From a bacterium (GTDB lineage Bacteria; Sysuimicrobiota; Sysuimicrobiia; Sysuimicrobiales; Kaftiobacteriaceae): a stretch of DNA of 64,000 nt. The notes beneath the pieces were generated by a model. The model did not search any database. It worked only from the letters and a program-made list of their open reading frames with translations, and was not told the DNA's origin. Below are positions 12,337 through 61,766 of this stretch, piece by piece. Location: NCBI GenBank assembly GCA_035292085.1, contig DATDQT010000124.1, positions 3,434 to 67,433 of the forward strand, read 5' to 3'. Positions within the stretch are counted from its first letter, which is position 1. Each line of letters begins with the position of its first letter. Position numbers and translations under genes: made by a program.

Positions 12337-12415
12337 GGTGGGAGGGGCGGGGCGGAGCCTCTCCCCGAAGGCCACTTCACAGGGACCCGTCAGGCTCCGC
12401 CCCGCCCCTCCCACC
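12337..12415 (+). repeat. Family A hairpin element A2
   Basis: 23-bp perfect arms GGTGGGAGGGGCGGGGCGGAGCC / GGCTCCGCCCCGCCCCTCCCACC flank the 33-nt module TCTCCCCGAAGGCCACTTCACAGGGACCCGTCA. Confidence 0.9.
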
Positions 12416-13663
12416 CCCAAGGAGACCATCCGTCCAGAGAGACTGAAGTCCGACAATCGCCAGCCTAAGCGTCATCTTGGTCAGGGGCCAAGCGGAGCGA
12501 CGGTGGAGGGCCTGGCGGAGCACCGGAACCAGCAGGCGCGACTGGTAGGCCGTATCCCCATGGACCTCGAGCGTCTGCCGTACCTCGTCGACGTTCGCCA
12601 GCGCGGCGACCACCGCATTGAGGTCCACATCGCTCATCCGGTTCAAAACAGTACGCACCATGGACGTGAACCGCAGTTCCCGCCCAAATCGCCGGCGCCA
12701 CCGGCGCTCGTACTCGGTCAGCGCCGCACGGCGACCGCCGGCATAGGCCGCCGCGGCGCCCGCGGCCAGCTGTCCTCCGATCAAGGAAAAGTAGATCCCG
12801 CCTCCGCTGGTGGCCTTCACGTGACCGGCCGCGTCCCCGGCGACGATCATCCCGTCGGTCGTGCTGCGGTGGCGGCGGCTGATCACGGGGATCGGCCCGG
12901 CCAGTTTCTGTTCGATGACGGCGCGGCGGAGGCGGCGGGAGGCAACCGGGTGTTCGCGGATGAGACGCTCGAGATAGTAGAGCGGCGCCCGCGGCGCAAA
13001 TGCCGGGTCTACGCACAGCCCGACGCGTCCCCGGCCTGGCCCGATGGGCATCAGCCACGCAAAGAACCCGGGCGAGGACGACGTTCCCAGGTACACTTCG
13101 GGGCAGTCGTTACCGTCCAGGTCGACGCCGCTCATCTGGTACTGCAGCCCCATGACCGACCGACGGGGCAAATCCAGTCCCAGGGTGCGCGGCAGGACGG
13201 GCCTGGCCCCCTCGGCATCGATGACTACCCGGGCCGTGGCCGCGTAGGACCGCCCCGCGCGTTCTCCGGTGACCCGGATCGTTCCGTTCAGCCGTTCCGC
13301 GGCGCGGAGGCGAGTCCCCACCACGAGTTCGGCGCCCTCCTCCTGTGCCTGGACTGCCAGCCAGCGGTCGAACACGCCGCGGTCGACGACGTGCGAATCC
13401 GGCCGGGCGCGGCGGACTCGGGCGACGGCCCCGTTCGGCGCATAGAACCTGCCGGCCTGGAGCGTGTTCAGGATCAGGTGCGACGGGAGATTGAATTCGC
13501 GAAATGCGTGGAGCTGGAGTTTCCCCGAACAGTGGATGGGCGTCCCGACTTCGCGGTGCTCCTCGATCAATGCGGTCCGCAGTCCGAGCCGGGCGGCGGA
13601 CAGAGCAGCCATGCCCCCGGCGGGGCCGGCGCCGACCACGATGACATCATAATTCGGTGGCAT
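12377..13663 (-). CDS. Geranylgeranyl reductase family FAD-dependent oxidoreductase
   Basis: ATG at 13663 after AGAGGAGA. MPPNYDVIVVGAGPAGG dinucleotide-binding motif. The last 13 codons are encoded by hairpin element A2. Confidence 0.75.
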   Translation of the reverse strand: MPPNYDVIVVGAGPAGGMAALSAARLGLRTALIEEHREVGTPIHCSGKLQLHAFREFNLPSHLILNTLQAGRFYAPNGAVARVRRARPDSHVVDRGVFDRWLAVQAQEEGAELVVGTRLRAAERLNGTIRVTGERAGRSYAATARVVIDAEGARPVLPRTLGLDLPRRSVMGLQYQMSGVDLDGNDCPEVYLGTSSSPGFFAWLMPIGPGRGRVGLCVDPAFAPRAPLYYLERLIREHPVASRRLRRAVIEQKLAGPIPVISRRHRSTTDGMIVAGDAAGHVKATSGGGIYFSLIGGQLAAGAAAAYAGGRRAALTEYERRWRRRFGRELRFTSMVRTVLNRMSDVDLNAVVAALANVDEVRQTLEVHGDTAYQSRLLVPVLRQALHRRSAWPLTKMTLRLAIVGLQSLWTDGLLGGGRGGAEPDGSL

Positions 13664-13739
13664 CACGTCTCCTCTTTCGTGGAACTCCCCGCTCACCCTA
13701 CCCTCCTGAGGGTGTGTACGTTGTAGAATTGAGGTCACC

Positions 13740-14309
13740 ATGCGCCGAATCATCATCGCCGGATTGGTCCTCATCTTCACCGCGCTGCCGTCCGCGTACG
13801 GTCAAGCGACGTTCAAGCGGGGCACGCTGACGCTTGTCCAGGGACCCACCCGCGTCGTGCTGCAGGTGGAAGTTGCCGATACGCCACCGTCACGGGCGCA
13901 GGGCCTGATGTTTCGCAAATCACTCCCCGACCTCGCTGGGATGCTCTTCATCTTTGAGGAGGAGCAGCGCTGGTCATTCTGGATGAAGAACACGCTGATT
14001 CCCCTCTCGATCGGCTTCTTCGACGCGCAGTGGCGCCTGGTGGACATCAAGGACATGAAAGTGGCGCCGGATCCGGCCAAGGGTCCATTCGATTACTACG
14101 GGTCCGCCCTGCCGGCCATCTACGCGCTCGAAGTCAACCTGTGCTTCTTCAAACGGCATGGGCTCAACCGCTGGGTCTGGCGGGATGGCAAACTGGTCTC
14201 GGCGGGCGCCAAGGGCGTCTTCGCCCTCACACAGGGGTCGGCGCCTCCACGAACGACAGGGCACACGAGTACCACCGCCGCCGCACCGCCCATGTGCGCG
14301 GGGCAGTAA
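13740..14309 (+). CDS. DUF192-family secreted protein
   Basis: Signal-like N-terminus MRRIIIAGLVLIFTALPSAYG. DUF192-like RAQGLMFR...GMLFIF...FWMKNTLIPLSIGFFD. Confidence 0.6.
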   Translation: MRRIIIAGLVLIFTALPSAYGQATFKRGTLTLVQGPTRVVLQVEVADTPPSRAQGLMFRKSLPDLAGMLFIFEEEQRWSFWMKNTLIPLSIGFFDAQWRLVDIKDMKVAPDPAKGPFDYYGSALPAIYALEVNLCFFKRHGLNRWVWRDGKLVSAGAKGVFALTQGSAPPRTTGHTSTTAAAPPMCAGQ

Positions 14310-14369
14310 CCGCCGGCGGCTTTTCCACATCGTCCACGCTATCCACAAACTGGGAACGGAAGTTCCGCC

Positions 14370-14399
14370 TTGACCACGCTTGCGGGGCCGTGTTAGAAA
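14370..14399 (+). promoter_or_regulatory. Candidate promoter for the nadE operon (TTGACC-N18-TGtTAGAAA)
   Basis: TTGACC at 14370-14375 and extended -10 TGTTAGAAA at 14391-14399. Leaves a leader of about 150 nt. Confidence 0.45.
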
Positions 14400-14555
14400 G
14401 ATACTCGCCAGCGGAAAGCGGATTGTTCGAGATGGGAGGAGGTACCGCTCGTCTTCGGCGCTTCGGCGCCGGAGGAGCGCGGCAACCCGGCCTAACTCAG
14501 CAGGAGCGCACCCGCTGGCGCTGTTTCTCCTCCCCCGCGCTATACTTTTCCTGGT

Positions 14556-16304
14556 ATGTTCCGCGTCGCCATGGCCCAAATCAATACGACGGTGGGGGAT
14601 CTGGAAGGCAATACCCGCCGCATCTGCGAGGCCATTGACCGCTCGCGCGATCTCGAGGCCGACCTCGTCTGCTTCCCCGAGCTCGCCGTCACGGGGTACC
14701 CGCCCGAAGACCTGCTGCTGAAACCCGACGTCGTCCGGGGCAACCTGGCCGCAGTAGAAGAGATCACCCGCCGGACCCAGGGGATCGCAGCCGTGGTGGG
14801 GTTCGTGGACCAGGAGACCCACCTCTACAACGCCGCGGCGGTCCTGGCCGACGGGGAGCGGGTCGGGATCTACCACAAACAGCGGCTGCCCAATTACGGG
14901 GTATTCGATGAGAAGCGCTACTTCCAGCCCGGGCGGGAGGGTCTCGTCTGTGTGATCCGCGGCGTCCCGGTGGGGGTAACCGTCTGCGAGGACATCTGGG
15001 CGCCGGGGGGGACCTGCCAGGCGGAGGCCGCGGCGGGGGCGCTGGTGGTCATCAACATCAACGGCTCCCCCTATCACGCCGGGAAGTGGCGCCAGCGCGC
15101 GGAAATGCTGCGGACGCGCGCGCGCGACTACAGCATCATCCTTTGCTACAACAACCTCGTCGGCGGCCAAGACGAACTGGTCTTCGACGGCATGGGGATG
15201 GTGTTCGACCACACCGGCAATCTGCTCGCGCGCGGCAGGCAGTTCGAAGAAGACCTGATCCTCTGCGACGTGGATCCCGAAGCCGTCCGCCGCCACCGCC
15301 GGTTCGCTCCCGTCGGCCCGGCCGCCGGCGAGGAGGGCACGGTTCCGGTGACGACTATTCCGTTCTCCGGCCCGCGCGGGGAGCGGCGGGGGCCGGTCCA
15401 CCCGGAGATTGTCCCCGCCCTGGAACCGTCGGCGGAGATCTACGCCGCCCTGGTCCTGGGCACCCGCGACTACGTGCGGAAGAACGGGTTCCGCCACGTC
15501 ATCGTTGGCCTGTCCGGCGGGATCGATTCCTCGCTCGTAGCGACAATCGCCGTCGATGCGCTGGGCAGCGACTACGTGCATGTCGCCTGGATGCCCTCCC
15601 AGTACAGTTCGGACGAGAGCCGGCGCTACGCGCAGGAGGTTGCCTCGAATCTCGGCACCGAGGTCACCGCATTGGGGATCGACGGAGTCTTCCAGGCCTT
15701 CTTGCAGACCCTGCGCGAGGCGTTCGCCGGCCGGACGCCGGATACGACGGAAGAGAACATCCAGGCGCGGATCCGCGGCACGCTGCTGATGGCGCTGTCG
15801 AACAAGTTCGGCTGGCTCGTGCTCACGACGGGGAACAAGAGCGAGCTGAGCGTGGGCTACGCCACCCTTTACGGGGACATGGCCGGCGGGTTCGCGGTGA
15901 TCAAGGACGTGCCGAAGACCGTCGTCTACGAACTGGCACGCTGGCGCAACACGACCGCGCCGGTCATTCCCGAAGGCGTGATCACGCGCGTCCCGACGGC
16001 CGAGCTGCGGCCGGGCCAGAAAGACACCGACACGCTGCCGCCGTACGAGATCCTCGATCCCGTGCTGCGGCTCTACGTGGAGGAAGATACCCCACCGCAG
16101 GAGATCGTCGCCGCCGGGTATCCGGCCGATCTCGTCAGCAAGGTCGTCGCGATGGTGGACCGCAACGAGTACAAGCGCCGGCAGGCCCCGCCGGGCATCA
16201 AGATCACGCCCAAGGCCTTCGGCAAAGACCGCCGGCTTCCAATCACGAACTGGTACCGGAGCACCGTCCGCACGCCAGAACTCATCCGGCCTGACGATCG
16301 ATGA
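14556..16304 (+). CDS. nadE: Glutamine-dependent NAD+ synthetase (nitrilase-type glutaminase + ATP pyrophosphatase domains)
   Basis: 582 aa. MFRVAMAQINTTVGDLEGN, CFPELAVTGYPPEDL, GLSGGIDSS (SGGxDS). Confidence 0.9.
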   Translation: MFRVAMAQINTTVGDLEGNTRRICEAIDRSRDLEADLVCFPELAVTGYPPEDLLLKPDVVRGNLAAVEEITRRTQGIAAVVGFVDQETHLYNAAAVLADGERVGIYHKQRLPNYGVFDEKRYFQPGREGLVCVIRGVPVGVTVCEDIWAPGGTCQAEAAAGALVVININGSPYHAGKWRQRAEMLRTRARDYSIILCYNNLVGGQDELVFDGMGMVFDHTGNLLARGRQFEEDLILCDVDPEAVRRHRRFAPVGPAAGEEGTVPVTTIPFSGPRGERRGPVHPEIVPALEPSAEIYAALVLGTRDYVRKNGFRHVIVGLSGGIDSSLVATIAVDALGSDYVHVAWMPSQYSSDESRRYAQEVASNLGTEVTALGIDGVFQAFLQTLREAFAGRTPDTTEENIQARIRGTLLMALSNKFGWLVLTTGNKSELSVGYATLYGDMAGGFAVIKDVPKTVVYELARWRNTTAPVIPEGVITRVPTAELRPGQKDTDTLPPYEILDPVLRLYVEEDTPPQEIVAAGYPADLVSKVVAMVDRNEYKRRQAPPGIKITPKAFGKDRRLPITNWYRSTVRTPELIRPDDR

Positions 16305-18814
16305 CGGGGCCAGTCGAATCACGCTACCACGTCAGCATCGCGCTGGCGACGCTGCCGTTTGCCCCGCCGGCGCGCTTCCATCTCCAGGACAATGACGAGT
16401 ACGTGAAGTACGGCCATCCCCCGTTTGCCACGCCCGGCCGCGGCGATCCGTACTGGACCCCCGAGATCATTTCGCAGACGTGGTACATGGCGGAGAAAGG
16501 CAAGATTCCGATCTCGGGCGCCGGGTATGGGGGACCGTTTGCGGGACCGGGGTTCGACGCGATCTGGTTGGACATGTCCGAGATCGTGCGGCCCACGCGC
16601 GACGGCATCCATGGCCGGGAGTACATCTCCACCGGCGTGGACGTCGGACGGAAGCCCGCGCGGTTAGTTCTCGACGCCGCGGGTCGGCTCACCGCCTCGC
16701 CGCCGATTGTTGAGCTGCCCATTCCGGTCGTCTTCAATCCGTTCCCCTTCCCCCTGCAGGGCCGTGCGCCGGTGGCGGCCATCGCGCGCGCGGCGGCCGC
16801 GCTGCGGACGCTGGCCATTGTCACGCCGGAGCAGTGGGGCGACGACCTCATCCCCCTGGCCGAGTGGATCGCTCCGCGGCTGCGTGTTGAAGAGGTGGAC
16901 ACGCATCGGGCGATGTGGGCGGCCGCCAGATACGTCGAGCTTGAGGTCCCGGACACCGGCATCGATGTGGCCGGACTGATCAAGGGCGAGCGGCCTGATG
17001 TGGTCATCGGGTACCGCATCCCGCTGGAAGGGGATGTGGAAACCCGGGTGCTGGACCTCGCGGCAGGCGGAGCCGAGGTCGTCCACCTGTACGCGGATGA
17101 GTACGGGAGCAGTGCGCGCGGGTTCATCGCGGACACCGTGCGCGGCGTGCACCGCCGGCTGGTCGACGCCGGCATCCGCGACGAGGTGACGCTGCTCGCC
17201 AGCGGGGGGATCGCGACCGCGGAACACGTCCCCAAGGCGATCGTCTGTGGGGCGGACCTTGTGGCCATCGACTACACGATCCTCCTGGCCTTCGGCTGCG
17301 GGCTGTGGGCAGATAAGGCGCACTGCCCGGCCGAAAGCGGTGACTTCTCCCCCGAGTGGGGCGCGCAGCGGTTGGTGAACCTCATGGGTGCCTGGCGCGA
17401 CCAGCTGCTCGAATGCCTGGGCGCGATGGGGATGCGCGAGGTCCGCCGCCTGCGGGGCGAGACGGGCCGGGCGATCTTCCAGCCGCAGGAGGAAGCGGCG
17501 TTCCGCGCGCTGATTCCCACGACGGCACCCGCGCCGCCGGAACCGGAGGACACCGAGGTTCCGACCATGGGGGACCTGCGGTGGACGCCGGACCTGCTGC
17601 AGGCGACGTGGGTGCAGGCCGCCACGGGCCACCCTCCGACCCGGGGTGAGTATCGGGTCGGGAAGTCCGGGGGCGGGTTCGATGTCGTGCGCTTCGCCGT
17701 GGAACTCGACGGAGAGTCGGAGAGCGGCATCCGCCCCGAAGAAGTCGATATCAGCCTGCGGCTGAACCGGCGCGGGGACGGGCCGCAGATTACCATCGAC
17801 GTCCCCTTCTACGGCGGCGGGATGTCCTTCGGATCCGTCAGCGCGCAGACGATGCTCGCCCGCGCGATGGCCGCGGCGGCCACGAACACGTTTACGTCGA
17901 CCGGTGAAGGCGGCTACCCGGAGGAACTGGTCCCCTACGCCGATTACGTGATCACGCAGGTCGCGACCGGCCTGTTCGGCGTCCGTGAGGAGACGATCCA
18001 GCGCGCCCGCTTCGTCGAGTTCAAGTACGCGCAGGGCGCCAAGCCGGGGCTGGGCGGCCACCTCCTCGGGGGCAAGACGACCGAGGTCGTCGCCACGATG
18101 CGCGAGGCGGTGGCGTGGACGTCGCTGTTCTCTCCGTTCCCGTTCCACAGCGTCTATTCCGTGGAAGACCATAAGAAACACGTGGACTGGATCCGCGCGG
18201 TGCATCCGGACGCGCTCATCGCGGTGAAGGTGAGCACGCCGACCGACGTGGACATGGTCGCGGTCGGCATCTACTATGCCGGCGCGCATATCGTCCACCT
18301 CGACGGCGGGTACGGGGGGACCGGCGCTGCGCCGGAGATCGCCAAGAAGAACATCGCGATGCCGATCGAGTACGCGATTCCGAAGGTGCACCGGTTCCTG
18401 GTCAACGAGGGCATCCGCGACGACATCGTGCTGGTAGCCTCTGGGGGGATCCGGACCGCGTACGACGCGGCGAAAGCCATCGCCCTGGGCGCCGACGGTG
18501 TCGTCGTAGGCATGGCCGACCTCGTCGCGATCGGCTGTACGCGGCTGGCGGACTGTGAGAAGGGCAAGGGATGCCCGTTCGGGATTACGACCACCGACCC
18601 CGAGATGTCCAAACTCATCGTGCCCGAATGGGGCGCCGAGCGCATCGCCAACCTCTACCGCGCCTGGGGCGCGCAGCTGCGGGAGTTGCTGGCGCAACTG
18701 GGGATGCGGCGCATCGGCGACCTGCGGGGGCGGACGGACCTGCTCGTGTACCTGGAACCCATGTCTGAGATTGCTTCCCGCCACGGCGGCAATGCCGCCT
18801 CGCGCTCGCAATGA
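16301..18814 (+). CDS. Glutamate-synthase-related protein with two tandem FMN/TIM-barrel-type modules
   Basis: 837 aa. The C-terminal module carries GMSFGSVS, FKYAQGAKPGLGGHLLGGK, SPFPFHSVYSVEDH, VASGGIRTAYDAAKAIALGADGVVVG and CTRLADCEKGKGC. The N-terminal module keeps only LASGGIATAEHVPKAIVCGADLVAIDY. ATGA overlaps at both ends. Confidence 0.8.
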   Translation: MTGPVESRYHVSIALATLPFAPPARFHLQDNDEYVKYGHPPFATPGRGDPYWTPEIISQTWYMAEKGKIPISGAGYGGPFAGPGFDAIWLDMSEIVRPTRDGIHGREYISTGVDVGRKPARLVLDAAGRLTASPPIVELPIPVVFNPFPFPLQGRAPVAAIARAAAALRTLAIVTPEQWGDDLIPLAEWIAPRLRVEEVDTHRAMWAAARYVELEVPDTGIDVAGLIKGERPDVVIGYRIPLEGDVETRVLDLAAGGAEVVHLYADEYGSSARGFIADTVRGVHRRLVDAGIRDEVTLLASGGIATAEHVPKAIVCGADLVAIDYTILLAFGCGLWADKAHCPAESGDFSPEWGAQRLVNLMGAWRDQLLECLGAMGMREVRRLRGETGRAIFQPQEEAAFRALIPTTAPAPPEPEDTEVPTMGDLRWTPDLLQATWVQAATGHPPTRGEYRVGKSGGGFDVVRFAVELDGESESGIRPEEVDISLRLNRRGDGPQITIDVPFYGGGMSFGSVSAQTMLARAMAAAATNTFTSTGEGGYPEELVPYADYVITQVATGLFGVREETIQRARFVEFKYAQGAKPGLGGHLLGGKTTEVVATMREAVAWTSLFSPFPFHSVYSVEDHKKHVDWIRAVHPDALIAVKVSTPTDVDMVAVGIYYAGAHIVHLDGGYGGTGAAPEIAKKNIAMPIEYAIPKVHRFLVNEGIRDDIVLVASGGIRTAYDAAKAIALGADGVVVGMADLVAIGCTRLADCEKGKGCPFGITTTDPEMSKLIVPEWGAERIANLYRAWGAQLRELLAQLGMRRIGDLRGRTDLLVYLEPMSEIASRHGGNAASRSQ
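18765..18814 (+). repeat. Family B-like element embedded in a gene junction
   Basis: CTGAGATTGCTTC (18765-18777) and CTCGCAATGA (18805-18814) occur in the same order as in 5924-5959. The ATGA stop/start overlap lies in the terminal block. Confidence 0.7.
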
Positions 18815-21471
18815 TAACCACGTCTGACGCTATCGAGCACGTGATCGCATCACGTCGGGATCTTCTCCCGTTCCCATCCGCCTCAGCGAAGGCTGAAGCG
18901 GAAGGAGGTTGTGGAGTCGTCGGGCTGGCGTCGTCCATCCCGGTCCACGGCCGGCACATCCTTGTGCCCTGCGGCCAGATGCACAACCGCGGCAACGGCA
19001 AAGGCGGCGGGCTGGCGGCCGCGGGGCTGTCGGCGGAGCAGATGAGGGTCGACGACGACACGCTGGCGTCGGATTACCTGATCCAGATCGCGCTCCTCGA
19101 TGCGGCGGCGCACGACGACATCACCACGACACAGATCGACCCCGTCTTTGACGTCCACGCCGGGTACCGCATCCCGACCGTCGACGACTACCGCGACGTC
19201 CCCGATCTCGACCTCCGCCCGCCGGACGTGTGGCGGTACTTCGCGCGCGTGCGCCCGGATGCACTCGACCGGTTCGTGGCGGCCCATGGACTCACGCTGC
19301 TCTCCCGCCGGGCCGCCGAGGACGAGTTCATCTCCCAGTGGGCATTCCGGCTGAACAAGGCGTTCTACGGGGACGGACGCATGAAGGCATTCGTCGTCTC
19401 ATACGGCCGCGACATGCTCGTGCTGAAAATCGTCGGGTTCGCCGAGCAAGCGTTCCAGTACTACCGGATGGAAGACGTCACGGCACGGGTGTGGATCGGA
19501 CACCAACGGTATCCGACGAAAGGACGGGTCTGGCATCCCGGCGGGGCGCATCCGTTCGCCGCGCTCGACGTCGCGCTGGTGCACAACGGCGACTTCGCCA
19601 ACTACCATGCGGTGAGCGAGTACCTCGCCCAGCGCCACCTCTACCCGCTGTTCCTCACCGACACCGAAGTGGCCGTCCTGCTGTTCGACCTGTGGAGCCG
19701 GACCTACGGGTACCCGATTGAATACGTGATCGAGGCGATGGCGCCGACGACCGAACGCGATTTCCTGATGCTGCCGGCGGACAAGAAGCCGCTCTACCGG
19801 GCGATCCAAAGCAATCACATCCACGGCTCGCCGGACGGACCGTGGTTCTTCATCGTGGCGCGCAGCCTGACACCCGACGACGGCAAGGTGTCGGGCTGGC
19901 AACTCCTGGGAATCACCGATACGTCGATGCTCCGGCCGCAGGTGTTCGCGCTGCAGGAGGGCGAGGTCAGCCTCGGGATCATCGCGTCGGAGAAGCAGGC
20001 CATCGACGCGACGCTGGCCAGCCTCTCCCACGAAGACGCGCGCATCTGTCCGGTCGCCGACCGGTACTGGAACGCCCGCGGCGGATCGTACACCGACGGC
20101 GGCGCGTTCATGTTCACCGTCAACCGGACCGGCCGCCTGACGTGTACCGACAAGTTCGGCACGCCCGTCACCACCCCGCCGGGACAGCAGCACTATCTTC
20201 CGACCATCACGGTACCGGCCGGACACGTCGACACGACTCAGGGCGACAGGACGTCGGTGCGACCCGTACTCGGCGGCGCCGACGGAAGCCACTCACCGGC
20301 GTTGGAAAGCCGCGACGCGCTGGTGGCCCAGGGGGCAGACGGCGTGCGGACCTGGGACTATGAGGCGCTGTCCGAGTGGCTCGCCGCGGTGAGGCAGGAG
20401 GCGCGGCGCAGCGAGACCGCGCGCGCAGATGCACTGCAGGCACTGACGGAGTTGATCGACCGCCGGATGCCGACCGGAGGGAAGAAACGGGCGTCGGTGC
20501 TCGCGCTGTTGCATACGGCTGTCTATGGAATCCTCCGCGACCTACCGCCCCTGAACCACTCACGCCGTTCGGGTTCAGGGCACGCCATTGGGACGGAGCA
20601 CGGCGCCATGCACCGCGTCGAGTGGCACACTCGGTCTGAGCTGGGCGCTCCGCCGGGGCCGACGGGCACGTTGGTGATCGACGGGTACGGATTCCCATCA
20701 GAAGGGAAGGACAGCATCGCCCAGTACCTGGTCCGGGCTCATCAGGCGGGCTGGAAGTCGTTCATCGTCTTCGCCGCACGCGGGCAGCGCTTCATCGGCT
20801 GTGGATTCGGCCCGCTCGCACAGCCTGTGCGCGTGGAGGTCTATGGGAGCTCCGGCGACTACCTGGCATCGGGGCTCGACGGCGCCGAGATGGTGGTGCA
20901 TAACGACGCGCAGGACCAGGTCGGCCAAATTCTCAAGTCGGGCACGGTGGTCATCCACGGCAGCGTCGGCCAGACGCTCCTGTACGGCGCCAAAGGCGGC
21001 GAGATCTACATCCTCGGCAACGCCGCGGGCCGGCCGCTGATCAACGCGGTCGGGCGGCCGCGGGTCGTGATCAACGGCACCGCCCTGGACTATCTGGCCG
21101 AGTCGTTCATGGCCGGCGATCCCCTCGACGGCGGCGGGTTCTGCATCCTCAACGGCATCGGATTCGACGTCGATGGGAATGTCGTCGATCTCGACACACC
21201 GTACCCGGGAGGCAACCTGTTCTCGCTGGCCAGCGGCGGTGCGATTTACGTCCGCGATCCGTACCGGCGGCTGGACGACGAGCAGCTCAACGGCGGCCGC
21301 TACACGGATCTCGGCGCAGACGACTGGAACACCATCCTGCCGGTCCTGCTGGAGAATGAGCGCCTCTTCGGCATCCCGGTCGACCGCCTCCTGTCCATCG
21401 ACGGCCACCGGCGGGATCCGATGGACGTGTACATCAAAGTCGAGCCGGTCGAACTGGGTGTTTTAAAGTAG
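18811..21471 (+). CDS. Class II (Ntn) glutamine amidotransferase fused to a GXGXG (GltB C-terminal/GlxC-like) domain
   Basis: 886 aa. GGCGVVG with candidate nucleophile Cys34, HQRYPTKG, LVHNGDFANYH. C-terminal VYGSSGDYLASGLDGAEMVVHNDAQDQVGQILKSGTVVIHGSVGQTLLYGAKGGEIYILGNAAGRPL. Confidence 0.8.
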   Translation: MITTSDAIEHVIASRRDLLPFPSASAKAEAEGGCGVVGLASSIPVHGRHILVPCGQMHNRGNGKGGGLAAAGLSAEQMRVDDDTLASDYLIQIALLDAAAHDDITTTQIDPVFDVHAGYRIPTVDDYRDVPDLDLRPPDVWRYFARVRPDALDRFVAAHGLTLLSRRAAEDEFISQWAFRLNKAFYGDGRMKAFVVSYGRDMLVLKIVGFAEQAFQYYRMEDVTARVWIGHQRYPTKGRVWHPGGAHPFAALDVALVHNGDFANYHAVSEYLAQRHLYPLFLTDTEVAVLLFDLWSRTYGYPIEYVIEAMAPTTERDFLMLPADKKPLYRAIQSNHIHGSPDGPWFFIVARSLTPDDGKVSGWQLLGITDTSMLRPQVFALQEGEVSLGIIASEKQAIDATLASLSHEDARICPVADRYWNARGGSYTDGGAFMFTVNRTGRLTCTDKFGTPVTTPPGQQHYLPTITVPAGHVDTTQGDRTSVRPVLGGADGSHSPALESRDALVAQGADGVRTWDYEALSEWLAAVRQEARRSETARADALQALTELIDRRMPTGGKKRASVLALLHTAVYGILRDLPPLNHSRRSGSGHAIGTEHGAMHRVEWHTRSELGAPPGPTGTLVIDGYGFPSEGKDSIAQYLVRAHQAGWKSFIVFAARGQRFIGCGFGPLAQPVRVEVYGSSGDYLASGLDGAEMVVHNDAQDQVGQILKSGTVVIHGSVGQTLLYGAKGGEIYILGNAAGRPLINAVGRPRVVINGTALDYLAESFMAGDPLDGGGFCILNGIGFDVDGNVVDLDTPYPGGNLFSLASGGAIYVRDPYRRLDDEQLNGGRYTDLGADDWNTILPVLLENERLFGIPVDRLLSIDGHRRDPMDVYIKVEPVELGVLK

Positions 21472-21526
21472 CTCCGTGTTCGCTTTTGCCGTTTCTCCGC
21501 TTTCGGTACAATAGTGTATTAGTCTC

Positions 21527-24500
21527 ATGGCATTGACCGGTCTGCTCCCCTTCCTGCGGGAGTTGTCCCCCTACAATCAGGCGCTCGCGGCCGTCCGGGC
21601 AGGCCGCCATCCGTGGATCATGGGCCCAAATGCGGCCGAGAAAGCCTTCGTCCTGGCCGCCATGGCCCGGGACCTCCATCTGCCAGTGGAAGGCCCCATT
21701 CTGGTGGCCACGACCTCCCGGGAGAATGCCGACCGGCTGCACGACGACCTCCTGGCCTTCCTCCCCGACCTGGAACCCCATCTGCTGAGCCTGCCCTACT
21801 GGGAGACCCTGCCCGCCGACGGCAGCCGGCCGTCGGCCGAGTTCATCGGGGCGCGCCTGCTGGCACTGCTGCGGATGGCCAGGGGACCGCATCCCCTCAT
21901 CCTTGCTCCCGTAGGGGCATTGATCCACACCGTCCCGGCCCCGGAGATCCTCGCGGCTGTTCAATACGAAATCCACACGGCGCAGACCGTCAACCCGGGT
22001 CACGTGGTGGGGTGGCTGGCAGACCACGGATACTCCCGCGGCGACCTGGTTGAACGCAAGGGAGAGTTCGCCGTCCGGGGTGGACTCATCGACATCTACC
22101 CAGCGCAGGCCGAAGTCCCGATCCGCGTGGAATGGTTCGGCGACGAGGTCGACTCGATCCGCGGATTCGATCCCGCGACCCAGCGCAGCACGCACCGCCT
22201 GGAGTCCGCGATCTTCCTCCCGGCCGCCGACCTGCCGGGCACGGTGTCGCCGGTGGAGTACCTGTCCAGTACCTCGCTGCTCGTCTTCGATGAACCGTAC
22301 GAACTGAAACGCCAGGCCGACGCCGCCTACGAGCACGCCCCGGACACCAGTCTCACCTGGGATGAGGTCCTCGCCCGCGCGGGGACCATTCCGCAATTCG
22401 CGATCTCATCGCTCCACGGCCCCGAGGATCCCGACCGTGAGGTCGTGCTGCGCTTCGGCGGCGTGGAAGCGTTCGGGGGCCAGATGAAACTGCTCGCGCG
22501 GGCGGTCGAAGCGTGGCAGGAGCAGGGCCGGCGCGTGGTGCTCGCGACGACGCAGCCCCAGCGGATGACCGAGATCTTCGAAGACCACGGCGTCCGGGTG
22601 GTCCTGGCCGGCACACTGGAGCCGCCGCCTGAGCCGGGCGAGGTCATCGCCGTTCCCGCCGCGTTGTCGAGCGGATTTCAAATTGAGGCCGCATCCCTCG
22701 TGGTGGTCAGCGACAGTGAGATTGTCGGCTGGCGCCGGCGGCGGCGGCGCTTCCGGTTCCGCGACGGAGCCCGGCTGTACTCGTGGACGGATCTGGAACC
22801 CAATGATCTGGTCGTCCACATCCACCATGGCATCGGCGTCTACCGCGGCATCCGCCGGCTGCTGCTCGGGGGAGCGGAGCGCGACTACCTGGAACTCGAA
22901 TACGCCCAGGGCGACAGGTTGTACGTTCCGACCGATCAGGTCAACCTGGTCAGCCGGTACATCGGCGTCGAAGGCCAGGCCCCCAAGATCCACCGGCTCG
23001 GCGGAGCGGAATGGGACCGGGAGAAGAAACGCGTCAAGGAAGCGGCCCAGCAGCTGGCGCGCGAACTCCTCGACCTCTACGCCGCCCGCGAAACCGCCCC
23101 CGGCCACAAGTACAGCCCGGACACGCTGTGGCAGCACGAACTGGAGGCGTCGTTCGAGTACGAGGAAACCCCCGACCAGTGGCTGGCCATCCAGGACGTC
23201 AAGCGCGACATGGAAACCGGCAAGCCCATGGACCGGCTGATCGCCGGCGACGTGGGATACGGGAAGACGGAAGTGGCGCTGCGCGCGGCCTTCAAAGCGG
23301 TGATGGACGGCAAACAGGTGGCCGTCCTGGTGCCCACGACCATCCTCGCGCAGCAGCACTACAACGTGTTCCTCAGCCGGCTGGCGCCATACCCGATCAA
23401 GGTCGAGATGCTCAGCCGGTTCCGTTCCACAGTCGACGCGCGGCGGATCCGTGAGGAACTCGCCGCGGGCACCGTGGACATCATCATCGGCACGCACCGG
23501 CTGCTGCAGAAAGACGTCACGTTCAAGAACCTGGGGCTCGTCATCGTCGACGAGGAACAGCGCTTCGGCGTCGTGCACAAAGAGCGGTTGAAACAGCTGC
23601 GCACGACCGTCGACGTGCTCACGCTGACGGCGACGCCGATTCCGCGCACGCTGCACATGGCCTTAGTCGGGCTGCGCGACATGTCCGTCATGGAAACGCC
23701 GCCGGAGGCGCGGCTGCCGATCCACACCGAGATCCGCCCCTACGACGACGAATTGGTGCGCGCGGCCATCCTCCGCGAACGGGAGCGCGGCGGCCAGATC
23801 TACGTGGTCCACAACCGGGTCGAGACCATCGAGCGGTCCGCGCGCCGCATCCGTGCCCTGGTGCCCGACGCGCAGGTCGCCGTGGCCCACGGCCAGATGC
23901 CCGAATCCAAACTCGAACAGGTCATGATGGACTTCCTCGGCGGCCGGTTCCAGGTGCTGGTGTGCACGACCATTGTGGAGATCGGGCTCGACATCCCGCA
24001 GGTCAACACCATCATCATTGACGACGCGCACACGATGGGGCTGTCCCAGCTCTACCAGCTGCGTGGGCGCGTCGGGCGGGCGGACCGGCAGGCGTTCTGC
24101 TATCTGCTGTACCCGCGGGGGGCAAAACTCACCGAGGAAGCCCAGCAGCGCCTGGAGGCCATGCAGGAGTTCGTCGAGCTGGGCTCGGGGTTCAAACTGG
24201 CGATGCGCGACCTCGAGATCCGCGGCGCGGGCAACCTGCTGGGGCCGGAACAGCACGGCCAGCTGGCCGCGGTCGGCTTCGAGCTGTTCACGCGGCTGCT
24301 GGACGAAGCGGTGCGCGAGCTGCGGGGGCAGATGATCGAAGAGATGCCCGACGCCGCCATCGATCTGGGCGTGGATGCGTACCTGCCCGAGGTCTACATC
24401 GAGGATGAGGGGCAGCGCATGGCGGCGTACCGCAAGCTTGCCGCGGCGCGCACGACGGACGAAGTCCGCTCGGCCTCCGACGAACTGACCGACCGCTTCG

Positions 24501-33410: not shown

Positions 33411-34213
33411 CAGGAGGGCCTGGCCAAACCGGGGTCCGGGGTCCGGGGTCCGGGGTCCGACATAACTTCGGGGAGCGCCACGATTGACACGTCAGCTTCC
33501 CGCAACGCTGTGCGCACCGCCTGCGCGATTGCGACGGCGCCGGGGGTGTCGCTGTGGATGCACAGCGTGTCGGGCCGGAGGTTCAGCTCCGTGCCATCGA
33601 CCGCGGTGGTCGTGCCGTCGCGGACCATGCGCACGGCGCGCACGGCGGCGTAGTGCGCGTCGGTGATCACCGCGCCAGGCAGGTCGCGCGAGACGAGTGT
33701 TCCGGCCGCGGTGTACGCCCGATCGATGAACGCCTCGCGCGCGACGCGGAGGCCCATGTCCTCGAGGACTCGCGCGTGAGGAGATCCCGCAAGGACGACG
33801 ACGATCAACGAGGAATCCACATCGACGACCGCAGCGCCGATCGCTTCGGTCAAGGCACGATCCGACATCGCCTGATTGTAGAGGGCGCCGTGCGGCTTGA
33901 CGTGGCGCAGCGCAGCGCCGGCCTCCGACGCGAGGGTTGCAAGCGCCTGGATCTGCACGGCCAGGTCGGCCCGTACCTGGTCCGGCGCCGCGCGGACGGC
34001 CCGCCTGCCGAACCCTTCGCGGTCCGGGTAGGACGGATGGGCGCCGAGGCTCACGCCGTGAGTCAGGGCCAGCCGGATGCTCTCGCGCATCGTCTGCTCA
34101 TCACCGGCATGGCCGCCGCAGGCAATGCTGGCAGACGTCATCAGCGGCATGAGTTGAGCGTCCACCGCGGATCCCTCACCCATGTCGCAGTTGAGATCGA
34201 TGACCGCCATCAT
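33410..34213 (-). CDS. pxpA: 5-oxoprolinase subunit A (LamB/YcsF family)
   Basis: IDLNCDMGEG N-terminal motif, 267 aa. Confidence 0.85.
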   Translation of the reverse strand: MMAVIDLNCDMGEGSAVDAQLMPLMTSASIACGGHAGDEQTMRESIRLALTHGVSLGAHPSYPDREGFGRRAVRAAPDQVRADLAVQIQALATLASEAGAALRHVKPHGALYNQAMSDRALTEAIGAAVVDVDSSLIVVVLAGSPHARVLEDMGLRVAREAFIDRAYTAAGTLVSRDLPGAVITDAHYAAVRAVRMVRDGTTTAVDGTELNLRPDTLCIHSDTPGAVAIAQAVRTALREADVSIVALPEVMSDPGPRTPDPGLARPS

Positions 34214-34521
34214 CAGCGACGAGTCAGACGGTCCTGAGGGAATGTTTCGAGATAGCGTTTAGCCGCCTCCAGCCGCTTGAACAGGCGGGTCTCCCATTCG
34301 GGTGACACGAGGTCTGCTTCCGGCATGAACAGCAGCGCGCGGGCGCTGCCGAGCCGCAGCCCGTACTCCACGCCGGCAAACGGTTCGGCCATGTACCGGA
34401 CGGAAGGTTTGTCCAGCACCAGGCGTGCGTCGACGCGGCGGAGGACCTGCTCCAGTTTCCGGATGGCGTCGGCTTCGGAAATCACAAAGACAATGTTACT
34501 ACGGTACACTGGAAGTCGCAT
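34213..34521 (-). CDS. Hypothetical protein (102 aa), first gene of the pxpA operon
   Basis: ATG at 34521. Its stop overlaps the pxpA start (ATGA). I recognise no motif. Confidence 0.45.
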   Translation of the reverse strand: MRLPVYRSNIVFVISEADAIRKLEQVLRRVDARLVLDKPSVRYMAEPFAGVEYGLRLGSARALLFMPEADLVSPEWETRLFKRLEAAKRYLETFPQDRLTRR

Positions 34522-34544
34522 GATTCCGGAGTCCGGAGGCTGGG

Positions 34545-35105
34545 GTGGACTGGCGAGAATACTACGAGCAGGGTCTTCCCTACACAGAGTTTCTCGCGCG
34601 CTACGGCACCGACGAGCACCGGCGGCGGTGGCAGCGCATGTACGAACAGGTGACGCTCACCGCGGCGCCGCGCGAGATGCTGGCCGGGTTTCCCCGGCAG
34701 ATGCATCTGCTGTGCCTGGCCGGCACGTGGTGCGGAGACTGCGTGCGCGACTGCCCAATCCTGCAGCATATCGCGGAGGCCTCGCCGGTGATCAACCTGC
34801 GCTTTCTGGACCGGGATGACAACCCGGATCTGCGCGACGCATTACGCATCAACCAGGGCCACCGGATTCCCGTCGTCGTGTTCCTCAGTGAGGACTTCGC
34901 GGAGTGCGCCCGCTACGGCGAACGCACGCTGGCGACGTACCGGAAGATGGCGGCCGAACGCCTCGGTCCGGCGTGCCCTACCGGGATCATCCCGCCGGGC
35001 GAGGACTACATCGACGAGATGGTCGCGGACTGGCTGCGCGAGGTGGAGCGGGTGCAGTTGATGCTGCGGCTGTCGCCGCGGCTGAGGGAACGGCACGGAG
35101 ACTAA
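34545..35105 (+). CDS. Thioredoxin-fold protein (WCGDC active site)
   Basis: GTG 34545, 6 nt after GGAGG. LAGTWCGDCVRDCP. Confidence 0.7.
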   Translation: MDWREYYEQGLPYTEFLARYGTDEHRRRWQRMYEQVTLTAAPREMLAGFPRQMHLLCLAGTWCGDCVRDCPILQHIAEASPVINLRFLDRDDNPDLRDALRINQGHRIPVVVFLSEDFAECARYGERTLATYRKMAAERLGPACPTGIIPPGEDYIDEMVADWLREVERVQLMLRLSPRLRERHGD

Positions 35106-35134
35106 TGGTAGCCCAAGCGAGACGATGTTCGAAC
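35106..35134. repeat. tRNA-3'-end-like fragment plus left direct repeat of the islet
   Basis: TGGTAGCCCAAGCGA matches 13 of 15 nt of the tRNA-Glu 3' end (TGGTAGCCCCAGCGG at 36971-36985). GACGATGTTCGAAC (35121-35134) is repeated exactly at 36955-36968. Confidence 0.8.
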
Positions 35135-35211
35135 TATTTAAGAAGCTTCGGGCCGTCTTCCGAGAGGGATACTACCATTCTCCGGCGGCTTAGCTAAGAA
35201 CGGTCCGCAGT

Positions 35212-35616
35212 CTAGGATTTGCGGCTGAGGGATTCCAGCTTCAAGCCCACTATGCGCTCGTAGTGCTTGCGGTTCTCAGAAAGTAGGGTCAAGCCGTGGC
35301 GTAGCGCCGTCGAGGCAATAGCAAGATCGAATGGGTCCAAGGGTTGGCCAGAAGTTAGGAGCCGCGCGTTCTCTTGGCCAAACCGTTCCGACACTTCTTC
35401 AGTGAATGGAAGAGTTGTGACCCCTCGAAGGAATCGCCGGAGTCCTTCCGCTGCCTGTTCCGGGTTCTTTGACCGATGAACTCCCGTAAAGAGCTCAGCC
35501 AGCGTGATCGTGCTGATTGCGAGACCTTCACCGCGTAAGGCCCTGATGCGTTCTGCAACGTCTCTACGGCCCCGCAGCGAGAAAACCGCCCAGTCTGTAT
35601 CCAGCAGATACCGCAT
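35212..35616 (-). CDS. vapC: PIN-domain ribonuclease toxin
   Basis: MRYLLDTDWAVFSL, 134 aa. One-nt overlap with the upstream antitoxin gene. Confidence 0.85.
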   Translation of the reverse strand: MRYLLDTDWAVFSLRGRRDVAERIRALRGEGLAISTITLAELFTGVHRSKNPEQAAEGLRRFLRGVTTLPFTEEVSERFGQENARLLTSGQPLDPFDLAIASTALRHGLTLLSENRKHYERIVGLKLESLSRKS

Positions 35617-35852
35617 TAAAGCTCGACGGCCGGCCGGGTGCTCCGTTTGCGCAATTCGTAGATCTCGTCAACAAAGTCTTCTGACACGAGATCCTTCCAA
35701 CTACCAATGGAGGAAAGAAATGCGGCATCGTCCTTCTCGCTGGTCTTCTCGGGCATGGGAATATCGACCACCTCGTCCTCAGGGAGATCCACCGGCTCGA
35801 GTGGCTCAAAGACACCCTTCTTGTACTTGGCTCTGATGACTTTGCCCAACAT
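35616..35852 (-). CDS. Antitoxin (DUF104/AF2212-like N-terminus) of the VapBC pair
   Basis: ATG 35852 after GAGGTGA. MLGKVIRAKYKKGVFEPLEPVDLPEDEVV. Confidence 0.7.
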   Translation of the reverse strand: MLGKVIRAKYKKGVFEPLEPVDLPEDEVVDIPMPEKTSEKDDAAFLSSIGSWKDLVSEDFVDEIYELRKRSTRPAVEL

Positions 35853-35905
35853 CGTCACCTCGGTCTCACCATACGGTACGTGTCCGTGAAGGTCAATGGA
35901 ACCTC

Positions 35906-36745
35906 TCAAGAGCCCGGAATTTCATAGTCTTTTGCCCTCTCCACTGCATATCCGACAAACTGCAACGTTTGTTGATAAATCGCGTGATCAGCCGGCTGAT
36001 GCGTAGAAATCGAGGTGTCCTGGCGCTCTTTCCAGCAATAATCTATCAACGGTATCCATTGCGGGTCGAGATTGGATTTGGCCCATTTGAGGCCCGCCAG
36101 CTTCGAGCTCACTTTTCCTTCCGACAAGTCATGCAGCATGCGGCAGAAATTCAGCACCAGGTATGATTGATAAAACCTGTTCTTGTACCGCCCCGGATCT
36201 TGCAGCAACTCCTGTCCCCAGCCGACCAGCGTATTCCCTATTTCTTTGCGTAACTCATCGGCGGGTACAGGGTCAATGAGAGTAGCCGGGTTTGGCCCCA
36301 GTACCGTAACGCCCATCTCTCTCACGGTCCAGCGGACCACCAGCGTATTGTCGTGGTCTGACCGTTGAATGGTGGGGCTGCCGTTATCAAAGTACCAGAG
36401 CTCTTCGCTTTGTGCCGGAACCCCGGCGTCCGTGTACGGTGACGACGGTTGCTGGAGCACGGGCGTGGGAAAGAAGGAATACTCGAGCCGCTTGACCCAG
36501 AGATTATCCTGATCGTACATGCGGCGATGCGTGGCCTGCACCTCCACGACTTCGCGTTCAGACAGGTCTTCTCTCGTGACAACAATGAAGTCGACATCGC
36601 TGGTGAGATCGAAATCGCCGATTGCCAAAGATCCTTGCAGATATTCGCCCACAAATTCAGTGCCGAGTACCCTCTGCATACTTTTCGCGTGTTCTTCCAG
36701 TACAGCATCCAGTTTCGAGTATGGTGTGAGTGATCCATTGCTCAT
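35906..36745 (-). CDS. Nucleotidyltransferase with C-terminal DUF4111-like domain (ANT/AadA-like architecture)
   Basis: YLQGSLAIGDFDLTSDVDFIVV NTase motif. Start is uncertain: ATG 36745 is chosen, and the ORF is open to 36856. Confidence 0.65.
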   Translation of the reverse strand: MSNGSLTPYSKLDAVLEEHAKSMQRVLGTEFVGEYLQGSLAIGDFDLTSDVDFIVVTREDLSEREVVEVQATHRRMYDQDNLWVKRLEYSFFPTPVLQQPSSPYTDAGVPAQSEELWYFDNGSPTIQRSDHDNTLVVRWTVREMGVTVLGPNPATLIDPVPADELRKEIGNTLVGWGQELLQDPGRYKNRFYQSYLVLNFCRMLHDLSEGKVSSKLAGLKWAKSNLDPQWIPLIDYCWKERQDTSISTHQPADHAIYQQTLQFVGYAVERAKDYEIPGS

Positions 36746-36954
36746 GGGTTTTCTAGGTTTCGCGGCTTCCTTCACGCCTTGATCATGATAACAAAAGGGC
36801 TTGCCACCGTTCATGCACGGGCCCACACCCGTTCGTTGATTGGAACGCTCGGACAAGATGGTTAGTCTCGGAGAGATAGTGGTCGGAAAGAATACAGAAT
36901 GTGGAATATTGACTGAGAAAAGTTCGAAGGAGCAAAGAAAGGTCGGGCAAGTGG

Positions 36955-36968
36955 GACGATGTTCGAAC
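36955..36968. repeat. Right direct repeat of the islet (GACGATGTTCGAAC)
   Basis: Exact 14-nt copy of 35121-35134, 2 nt from the tRNA-Glu CCA end. Confidence 0.85.
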
Positions 36969-36970
36969 GC

Positions 36971-37048
36971 TGGTAGCCCCAGCGGGATTCGAACCCGCGT
37001 CTTGGCCTTGAGAGGGCCATGTCCTAGACCGGGCTAGACGATGGGGCC
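36971..37048 (-). tRNA. tRNA-Glu (anticodon CUC), CCA encoded
   Basis: Hand-folded cloverleaf: acceptor GGCCCCA/TGGGGCT, D arm GTCT-AGCCCGGTCTA-GGAC, anticodon arm TGGCC-CTCTCAA-GGCCA, T arm GCGGG-TTCGAAT-CCCGC, discriminator A, then CCA. Confidence 0.85.
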
Positions 37049-37059
37049 GCGGCCAACTC

Positions 37060-37088
37060 ATTATACTGACCTCATCGCTGCCACGCAA
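37060..37088 (-). promoter_or_regulatory. Promoter of tRNA-Glu (TTGCGT-N17-TATAAT)
   Basis: On the minus strand, TTGCGT (37088-37083) and TATAAT (37065-37060). The -10 ends 11 nt before the tRNA 5' end. Confidence 0.6.
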
Positions 37089-37123
37089 AGTCTGGAACCT
37101 ACGGCGCTCAGGACGAACAGAAA

Positions 37124-37432
37124 CTACTGCTTTGTGGCTTCCCGGATGTGCTCGCGCTCGACTGCCTTGCTGAGTTTCCGAAAGGCCTCGTTCAGCGTCT
37201 GGCGCGCCTGCTCGCGGTCTTTGAGGCTCTCCACTGGGATGAATGCCTCGTGATGAAGAGTGCCGCGGACGAACTGAACCCGCAACTGGCCAGGCTCCGC
37301 CTCAGAAAGCTCGCCGATCGCAATGTCATCCCGGCCCAGTCCACTCAGGTGCTCGGTGAGCAGCCTCCGGTAGTTCTGCAGATCCGCATCCTTCACGGCG
37401 ATCCCCCCTTTCCCGCCGTCGTTTTTCCCCAC
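37124..37432 (-). CDS. Hypothetical protein (102 aa)
   Basis: GTG-initiated ORF with a plausible helical C-terminus. I recognise no motif, and an antisense ORF of similar size also exists. Confidence 0.35.
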   Translation of the reverse strand: MGKNDGGKGGIAVKDADLQNYRRLLTEHLSGLGRDDIAIGELSEAEPGQLRVQFVRGTLHHEAFIPVESLKDREQARQTLNEAFRKLSKAVEREHIREATKQ

Positions 37433-37455
37433 AACAGGAAGTCGACTCCGAAATC

Positions 37456-61755: not shown

Positions 61756-61766
61756 GGAGGCCTGAC

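Follow-up and report, generated by a model that had tools for sequence, protein, structure and literature searches.

The 64,000-nt stretch of DNA analysed here (the window) comes from contig DATDQT010000124.1 of a Sysuimicrobiota bacterium (assembly GCA_035292085.1) and carries on its forward strand three consecutive genes: nadE, followed by two genes (gene 2 and gene 3) whose products, chain A and chain B, share the domains of the glutamate synthase (GOGAT) protein GltB between them. An earlier reading of the same DNA, hereafter the preliminary description, had the three genes chained by ATGA overlaps; the coordinates are exact, and ATGA is read in the sequence at both junctions. The genes and junctions are as follows (lengths in amino acids, aa):

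14556..16304, + strand: nadE, 582 aa; PF00795 and PF02540; NCBIfam NF010588
16301..18814, + strand: gene 2 (chain A), 837 aa; PF01645
18811..21471, + strand: gene 3 (chain B), 886 aa; PF13522 (GATase_6) and PF01493 (GXGXG)
16301..16304, + strand: ATGA overlap of the nadE stop (TGA) and the gene 2 start (ATG), read as 'cgATGAcg'
18811..18814, + strand: ATGA overlap of the gene 2 stop and the gene 3 start, read as 'caATGAta'

The third-position GC content of nadE, gene 2 and gene 3 is 0.85–0.88 in a window of 67% GC, and the three open reading frames (ORFs) are therefore real genes. Calling by the longest ORF placed a 782-aa antisense ORF at nadE, which we dropped in favour of the call weighted by GC position, yielding nadE. 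Public gene calls for the same DNA (L010 and L011) make gene 3 830 and 818 aa long, starting 56–68 codons late (window 18811–18979), and thereby delete the invariant catalytic Cys34 and mask the ATGA coupling. Conservation among homologues extends over residues 10–36, and because the sequence ahead of Cys34 (residues 10–33) is conserved, the ATGA start is the correct one.

Gene 2 had been described as a flavin mononucleotide (FMN) module of the glutamate synthase type. The description holds for the C-terminal half of the protein, an FMN/2-oxoglutarate barrel with a PF01645 match, and leaves out a central-like N-terminal barrel (aa 1–418) that the protein also contains. Its parts, with reference to the ferredoxin-dependent glutamate synthase (Fd-GltS), are:

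16301..17554, + strand: N-terminal half, aa 1–418, a degenerate FMN-barrel copy in the position of the GltB central domain (hhalign, profile, model)
17555..18814, + strand: C-terminal half, aa 419–837, the catalytic FMN/2-oxoglutarate (synthase) barrel (PF01645, GltB alignment)
18023..18169, + strand: substrate and coupling loop, aa 575–623, KYAQGAKPGLGGHLLG...R601...SPFPFHSVYSVED, mapping onto Fd-GltS residues
18536..18574, + strand: cluster motif C746-x5-C752-x5-C758, the [3Fe-4S]-type three-cysteine motif of GltB (Fd-GltS alignment)

The Glu_synthase profile PF01645 matched residues 495–802 with 330 bits, and the C-terminal half aligned to residues 853–1170 of Azospirillum GltB (E 5e-53). 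Every motif that had been quoted for genes 2 and 3 was located; those of gene 2 are AQGAKPG (577–583), SPFPFHSVYSVED (611–623), GGYGGTGAAP (669–678) and the CX5CX5C cysteine cluster, found as C746-x5-C752-x5-C758. On alignment to Synechocystis Fd-GltS, E536 corresponds to E903, Q578 to Q969, K581 to K972, R601 to R992, S620 to S1011 and E622 to E1013, which we take to be the 2-oxoglutarate-binding and coupling residues of that enzyme, and C746/C752/C758 correspond to C1137/C1143/C1148, with a cluster spacing of x5/x5 in gene 2 versus x5/x4 in Fd-GltS. None of these nine gene 2 residues varies across 50 homologues.

Gene 2 is an internal duplication of the FMN barrel: its halves (1–418 and 419–837) aligned to each other by hhalign with a probability of 100%, E 7.5e-44 and 33% identity over 325 columns. 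The N-terminal half retains SGGIA.AEHVPKAIVCGAD and lacks both the GGTGAAP motif and the loop of about 44 residues, KYAQGAKPG...SPFPFHSVYSVED, that forms the 2-oxoglutarate loop; just two of the cluster cysteines, C333 and C342, are left. The AlphaFold2 model of gene 2 (predicted local distance difference test, pLDDT, 80.9; predicted template modelling score, pTM, 0.86) aligned to the GltB alpha chains 7mfm_G, 2vdc_A, 1ea0_A and 1ofd_A over about 860 columns (E ~1e-26, TMq 0.58–0.61), and gene 2 is therefore colinear with the central and FMN domains of GltB, at GltB residues about 430–1200. Since the profile of the N-terminal half matches both the GltB central domain (7mfm 580–677, i-E 0.002; 1llw 548–719, i-E 0.03) and the GltB FMN domain (i-E 3e-6), this half is the positional equivalent of the central domain while still being recognisable as an FMN-barrel copy.

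Gene 3 had been proposed to fuse a class II N-terminal nucleophile (Ntn) amidotransferase to a GXGXG domain through an unfamiliar linker, and this is borne out by Pfam matches to GATase_6 (PF13522, residues 223–339) and GXGXG (PF01493, residues 671–822), separated by a helical linker for which Pfam gave no match. The protein is built as follows:

18811..18909, + strand: propeptide, aa 1–33, ending in EAEGG right before Cys34 (homologue conservation)
18910..20208, + strand: class II (Ntn) glutamine amidotransferase domain, aa 34–466 (PF13522, motifs, model)
20209..20670, + strand: linker, aa 467–620 (AlphaFold2 model, conservation)
20671..21471, + strand: GXGXG beta-helix with a C-terminal helical/strand cap, aa 621–886 and stop (PF01493)

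In alignments of first 25 and then 50 homologues, EGG-C34-GV is invariant, as are QMHNRGNGKGGG, HQRYPTKG.VWHPGGAHPF, LVHNGDFANY and TDTE, and R15 is nearly so; QMHNRG, the shorter HNGDFANY core, TDTE and the EGG that precedes C34 are invariant across the 50. Gene 3 of the window itself reads EGG-C34-GVVG and LVHNGDFANYH. Judged by sequence, this set of motifs marks out an active class II (Ntn) glutaminase, and by analogy with other Ntn amidotransferases we infer that the propeptide is cleaved off before Cys34. In the AlphaFold2 model (pLDDT 83.5, pTM 0.87) the linker is disordered at 467–492 and then forms four helices (501–514, 517–531, 535–550 and 560–576; helix pLDDT >90), which hold the conserved motif LT.L.DRR..TG.KKR.SVLA. 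Structurally, the model comes closest to GltB alpha chains, with PurF and GlmS next. The match to the GltB alpha chains spans about 1580 columns, that is, the N-terminal amidotransferase together with the C-terminal beta-helix of GltB, with a TMq of 0.49 as compared to 0.30 for the amidotransferase alone, which suggests that the two domains of the modelled protein adopt a GltB-like mutual arrangement. The beta-helix also gave weak sequence matches to FwdC.

Genes 2 and 3 thus distribute the four GltB domains over two proteins, in keeping with the earlier claim of a split glutamate-synthase-like enzyme of non-canonical order. Judging from their sequences, they probably encode the two chains of a split GOGAT that works by the GltB mechanism and draws on an external electron donor. 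The core elements of a glutamate synthase are in place, namely the Ntn glutaminase, the FMN-barrel residues, the three-cysteine motif, and the central domain and beta-helix, and the invariance of the catalytic residues largely answers the question of substrate. In the proposed mechanism, chain B would shed its 33-residue propeptide to expose Cys34 as the N-terminal nucleophile and, given its intact catalytic motifs, would hydrolyse glutamine to glutamate and ammonia. The ammonia would travel on to chain A and add to 2-oxoglutarate in its C-terminal FMN barrel, and FMNH2 would reduce the resulting 2-iminoglutarate to a second glutamate, as the conserved residues of the barrel suggest. Electrons to re-reduce the FMN would then come in by way of the three-cysteine Fe-S cluster from an external one-electron donor without a gene in the operon, most likely a soluble ferredoxin or flavodoxin, as in ferredoxin-GOGAT; the alternative would be a GltD-type reductase from another part of the genome. 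As a catalytically dead duplicate, the N-terminal barrel of chain A would take the role of the GltB central domain, and in chain B the beta-helix and the helical linker would serve as scaffolding.

While the preliminary description presented the architecture as unusual, the pair is not rare: among 8,000 candidates scored, gene 2 and gene 3 each have about 7,000 relatives at E ≤0.001, already labelled as glutamate synthase. The best 120 relatives of each protein are full-length and 55–86% identical. An exhaustive HMMER search of 50%-identity cluster representatives returned 236 at E ≤1e-30, and among the 150 representatives listed a handful are full-length at about 880–900 aa. Named sources include Armatimonadota, Anaerolineae (Chloroflexota), Dehalococcoidia, Bipolaricaulota, Desulfobacterota, Latescibacteria and Thermoplasmatota, and the existing labels are solely 'glutamate synthase', 'glutamate synthase-related protein' and 'domain-containing protein 1/2/3' (JGI 'domain 1/2/3'). 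Neither gene 2 nor gene 3 passes any NCBIfam model. The family is tight, highly conserved and distinct from canonical GltB.

To place the pair in context we sampled 92 loci of relatives (80 metagenome loci and several contigs; 88 non-duplicate), called genes with a weighting by third- minus second-position GC, and clustered the proteins. In 77 of the 92 loci the gene 3 homologue is preceded by a barrel gene, and the gene 2/gene 3 junction is a 4-bp overlap in 17 of 63. In the majority form the two barrels are encoded as individual proteins (about 470 and 516 aa), both headed by a ferredoxin domain at the N-terminus, and the split-form relatives compared (L008, L029, L039, L043, L053 and L063) carry a four-cysteine motif, CxxCxxCx5C, in both barrels; these relatives are presumably anaerobic. 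The form found in the window, fused at about 830 aa and without the ferredoxin domain, occurs in 10 loci, and it keeps three cysteines in the second barrel, where the second Cys of the four-cysteine motif is Leu, and two in the first. Single-chain fusions that keep the operon order also occur (P0279, 3016 aa; P0326, 2526 aa; P0349, 2204 aa; P0374, 1049 aa), and along with the frequent adjacency they indicate that the two genes act jointly.

In canonical GltB the three-cysteine cluster takes electrons from ferredoxin or from GltD, which makes a soluble carrier (ferredoxin or flavodoxin) and a reductase with its gene outside the window the candidate donors for the pair. The earlier claim that no GltD, ferredoxin or reductase gene lies nearby stands: tblastn over the whole 64 kb found no GltD-like, electron-transfer flavoprotein (ETF), MvhD, MetF, MetV, HdrB, HdrC, GlcD-FeS or glnA sequence, and the ferredoxin motif CxxCxxCxxxCP is absent from its six frames. 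The absence of GltD is not in itself an oddity, as it had been taken to be, since ferredoxin-dependent GltS also lacks GltD and gene 2 has the same three-cysteine cluster motif. A flavoprotein encoded on the opposite strand at 12377–13780 was considered as a reductase partner and set aside; it belongs to the geranylgeranyl-reductase family, and its synteny is confined to close relatives. Among the candidates, a soluble one-electron carrier is perhaps to be favoured.

Electron-input genes recur beside the relatives. MvhD (PF02662), MetV (PF12225) and/or MetF (PF02219) lie directly upstream in 25 of the 26 split loci whose upstream sequence reaches 2.5 kb or more, as compared to none of the eight fused ferredoxin-less loci with enough flank. 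The order MvhD-MetV-MetF, then first barrel, second barrel and gene 3 homologue, was seen in L008, L029, L038, L039, L053, L055, L067, L070, L071, L089, L092 and others. The linkage spans many 70%-identity clusters and a GC range of 0.42 to 0.64. In seven loci (including L043, L045, L075, L076, L081 and L087) the series HdrC-HdrB-HdrA-MvhD-MetV follows the gene 3 homologue, and here the HdrA-like protein, of about 1480 aa, contains a GltD-like Fer4_20/Pyr_redox_2 insert. The GOGAT-like genes of these loci sit within a Moorella-type hdrCBA-mvhD-metVF cluster and could be coupled to electron-bifurcating machinery. Literature searches found no published link between methylene-tetrahydrofolate-reductase-type genes (metF) and glutamate synthase, and full-text searches no description of the MetFV/Hdr link of this glutamate synthase. 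Other inputs were found as well. The Thermoplasmatota locus L004 (6311–10097) has an AsnC-type regulator ahead of the fused ferredoxin-less pair and, behind the pair, ETF-beta, ETF-alpha with Fer4 and a Fer4_8/CCG protein. In Bipolaricaulota loci a GlcD-like flavin adenine dinucleotide (FAD)/Fe-S protein is encoded upstream, a GlcD-like gene of this kind precedes the barrel genes in L007, L021, L025 and L031, and in P0279 and P0326 a GlcD-like FAD_binding_4/FAD-oxidase_C module is joined in one chain to Glu_synthase barrel(s) and the amidotransferase-GXGXG fusion, with Fer4 in P0326. Electron-input modules are thus interchangeable among relatives, and the window form has none.

These findings bear on a lesser possibility, namely that the chemistry is the same but NAD(P)H-dependent, with a GltD/NfnB-type flavoprotein from elsewhere in the genome docking on the three-cysteine cluster. 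The cluster motif is of the GltB type, gene 2 resembles NADPH-dependent GltS in missing the insert of Fd-GltS, and GltD-like domains do occur near relatives, inside the 1480-aa HdrA-like protein of the seven Hdr loci. GltD-like sequence is nevertheless absent from the 64 kb, and a GltD-like gene adjoins none of the eight well-flanked fused ferredoxin-less loci; in canonical systems gltD normally adjoins gltB.

The first gene of the operon had been called a glutamine-dependent NAD synthetase, and we concur. The protein has an N-terminal nitrilase-type glutaminase domain (CN_hydrolase, PF00795) and a C-terminal NAD synthase domain (PF02540), and scores 730.7 bits against the NCBIfam equivalog NF010588 (NAD+ synthase), for which the cut-off is 479. 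The preliminary description regarded the coupling to nadE as a context not known to be described, and literature searches found no account of the nadE link. The link is not peculiar to one genome: nadE and the pair are immediate neighbours in 11 of the 88 non-duplicate loci, which fall into six or more clusters at 70% identity. The gene lies upstream in the window, L013, L014 and L015, each with a 4-bp overlap, and likewise in L006 by public gene coordinates; it lies downstream in L019, L020, L034, L041, L077, L078 and L085, with gaps of 3–151 bp; and it is found 4–8 kb from the pair in four further loci. For a single-copy gene, repeated occurrence beside the same operon, in both orders, is not chance. 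Five of the downstream loci carry, directly after the gene 3 homologue, a single-domain NadE of 242–253 aa without the nitrilase/glutaminase domain; the two scanned, from L019 and L041, match PF02540 at about 250 bits, and in L019 the short NadE is followed by a full-length nadE:

L019, 4305–5039: single-domain NadE
L020, 3105–3866: single-domain NadE
L041, 6691–7419: single-domain NadE
L077, 4548–5297: single-domain NadE
L085, 6657–7412: single-domain NadE

Could NadE then be a functional partner of the enzyme, for example through shared glutaminase ammonia or a glutamine/glutamate channel tying NAD synthesis to it? The adjacency on either side, the 4-bp overlap kept wherever nadE is upstream, the five glutaminase-less NadE proteins right after gene 3 and the enrichment of the adjacency in the form that lacks an electron-input module all speak for such a tie. 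We nonetheless consider it highly improbable: the NadE of the window has an intact nitrilase-type glutaminase domain of its own, 77 of the 88 loci have no adjacent nadE, no NadE fusion was seen among the long relatives examined, and carAB, purF and hisHF take the same position elsewhere, which fits co-regulation. The simpler reading, drawn from this exchange of carAB, purF and hisHF for nadE in other lineages, is that nadE is a co-transcribed and translationally coupled gene whose product likewise consumes glutamine and releases glutamate, under shared nitrogen-status control; a physical subunit is not favoured.

The other recurrent neighbours of the pair are glnA (12 loci), PII, amtB, carA-carB-purF (about 12 loci) and hisH-hisF, and they point to nitrogen and glutamine metabolism. 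Regulators also recur near the pair, of the GAF-kinase/REC-ANTAR or the sigma-54 type; as one regulator protein cluster mixes sigma-54 activators with GAF-HisKA_2 kinases, we did not label that cluster sigma-54. Just 5' of the fused pair, L034 (163–2375) encodes a histidine kinase of GAF-GAF-HisKA_2 build (PdtaS/PdtaR-like) together with a REC-ANTAR response regulator; two genes beyond nadE the same locus has a Flavodoxin_5 protein. In L078 (217–2465) the same REC-ANTAR regulator is preceded by a kinase homologue assigned by clustering only, and in L003 (2687–2875) a small ANTAR ORF adjoins nadE. In the window, the sigma-54 promoter consensus TGGCAC-N5-TTGCW has 17 matches versus 21.7 expected and none upstream of nadE, scans for sigma-70 promoters and terminators over 13600–22000 gave counts at chance level, and a hairpin spanning the end of gene 3 is weak.

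Several observations sit uneasily with a split GOGAT of the GltB type fed by a soluble carrier. The position of Fd-GltS Gln978 is held by an invariant histidine, His587, across the gene 2 family (window 18059–18061; GGQLPG in Fd-GltS versus GGHLLG). The Fd-GltS insert (912–937, or about 907–933) is presumed to bind ferredoxin, and it has no counterpart in gene 2, the 1llw alignment breaking between 911 and 938. Residues 89–111 of gene 2, WLDMSEIVRPTRDGIHGREYIST, are nearly invariant, so that the N-terminal barrel is conserved beyond the needs of a scaffold. Furthermore, nadE is adjacent in 6–7 of the 10 fused ferredoxin-less loci, a bias that simple co-regulation leaves unexplained. Finally, literature searches found no enzyme assay of any family member.

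The histidine in the substrate loop is one reason to consider a different amide or amine transfer, be it a reaction of the N-methylglutamate-synthase/GlxBCD type or the reductive amination of another 2-oxoacid. The amidotransferase is likewise PF13522 rather than the GltB-type PF00310, no NCBIfam equivalog cut-off is reached, and the same three modules serve other reactions, as in MgsABC (PMC6237917). We regard such a reaction as improbable, as the remaining 2-oxoglutarate-binding and coupling residues and the cluster cysteines are invariant, gmaS and mgd genes are not nearby, MgsA, MgsB and MgsC are separate proteins, and the genomic context is one of glnA, PII, amtB and glutamine amidotransferases.

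A broader evolutionary reading, doubtful enough that we offer it as speculation, takes in several of these features jointly. The core could be an ancestral-like, donor-agnostic GOGAT, the central domain of GltB deriving from its once cluster-bearing second barrel; anaerobes would have wired this core to flavin-based electron transfer (MvhD-MetV-MetF, Hdr, and GlcD-like fusions of up to 3000 aa); and the window form would be a streamlined descendant, stripped of both ferredoxin domains and of one barrel cluster, that now relies on an unrecognised donor or partner. On the same speculation nadE, the consistent companion of the window form, could hint at a direct tie to NAD synthesis.

Around the operon, a DUF192 gene lies 5' of nadE, with the geranylgeranyl-reductase-family flavoprotein on the opposite strand, and mfd and a SurA-like isomerase gene lie 3' of gene 3. 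Elsewhere in the window, the stretch 34000–38000 has a GC content of 0.59–0.61 as compared to about 0.67 and is probably an acquired island; it encodes a PIN-domain toxin (35212–35616), an AF2212-like antitoxin (35616–35909) and a nucleotidyltransferase with AadA_C (35906–36856). A gene pair for PrkA (AAA_PrkA and PrkA) and a DUF444 (YeaH-like) protein lies on the minus strand at 47862–50755. A beta-oxidation cluster at 58155–63542 encodes a FadB-like 3-hydroxyacyl-CoA dehydrogenase/enoyl-CoA hydratase (797 aa), a 611-aa acyl-CoA dehydrogenase and, identified by eye only, a thiolase-like ORF, with a putative TetR-like ORF upstream.

Cells take up ammonium mainly by a route of which glutamate synthase forms one half. 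The two-protein form, with thousands of members at least 55% identical across phyla and known through automatic annotation only, may be the working GOGAT of many uncultured lineages, and the identity of its electron donor would sharpen metabolic reconstructions of these organisms. The family keeps a barrel duplication that would account for the origin of the cofactor-less central domain of GltB, and the MetFV-Hdr-MvhD clusters of anaerobic relatives raise a possible coupling of nitrogen assimilation to electron-bifurcating machinery.

Of the known systems, MgsABC and GlxBCD use the same three module types, but as three small separate proteins encoded beside gmaS and mgdABCD (MgsA, about 300 aa; MgsB, about 225 aa; MgsC, about 442 aa; PMC6237917). 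The architecture of the pair differs from this, and neither the window nor the set of recurrent neighbours includes a gmaS or mgd gene. It is to the NADPH-dependent GltBD enzymes (Azospirillum 1ea0/2vdc/6s6s; B. subtilis 7mfm) that the FMN barrel aligns best in sequence and that both proteins come closest in structure. Unlike GltBD, however, the pair has its domains split and reordered, its amidotransferase is divergent (PF13522, not PF00310), and gltD, encoding the NADPH-oxidising subunit with FAD and 2x[4Fe-4S], is absent from the 64-kb window. Against the model for canonical single-chain GltB (NF008730/PRK11750; cut-off 1047 bits), gene 2 scored 207 bits and gene 3 17.5 bits.

Fd-GltS (Synechocystis GlsF, PDB 1ofd/1llw) shares with the pair the four structural modules, the 2-oxoglutarate, FMN and coupling residues, the three-cysteine motif and the absence of a GltD subunit. 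Fd-GltS, however, strings these modules along a single polypeptide of about 1500 aa (amidotransferase-central-FMN-beta-helix), whereas the pair is divided into (central-like + FMN) and (amidotransferase + linker + beta-helix). Gene 2 furthermore lacks the insert in the FMN domain that marks strict Fd-GltS, has His for Gln978, and has as its central-domain equivalent what is still a 33%-identical FMN-barrel copy.

In archaea, split glutamate synthases consist of separate COG0067, COG0069 and COG0070 proteins, with lineage-specific electron-input units described or proposed; putative F420-dependent glutamate synthases and an Ignicoccus GXGXG-Fer4-FMN fusion are among the archaeal-type variants (PMC3448663; PMC2614490). 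The pair resembles them in spreading the GltB modules over several polypeptides and differs in its amidotransferase-beta-helix fusion through a conserved helical linker, in its two paralogous barrels, one of them degenerate, and in the absence of a ferredoxin domain. Split and permuted GltS and swapped electron-input units have thus already been described for archaea, whereas the present arrangement, an amidotransferase-beta-helix fusion with a double barrel, is new as judged by full-text literature searches, which returned no published description of it. Relative to GltB, the order departs in one respect only: the amidotransferase is joined to the beta-helix and no longer stands ahead of the central domain.

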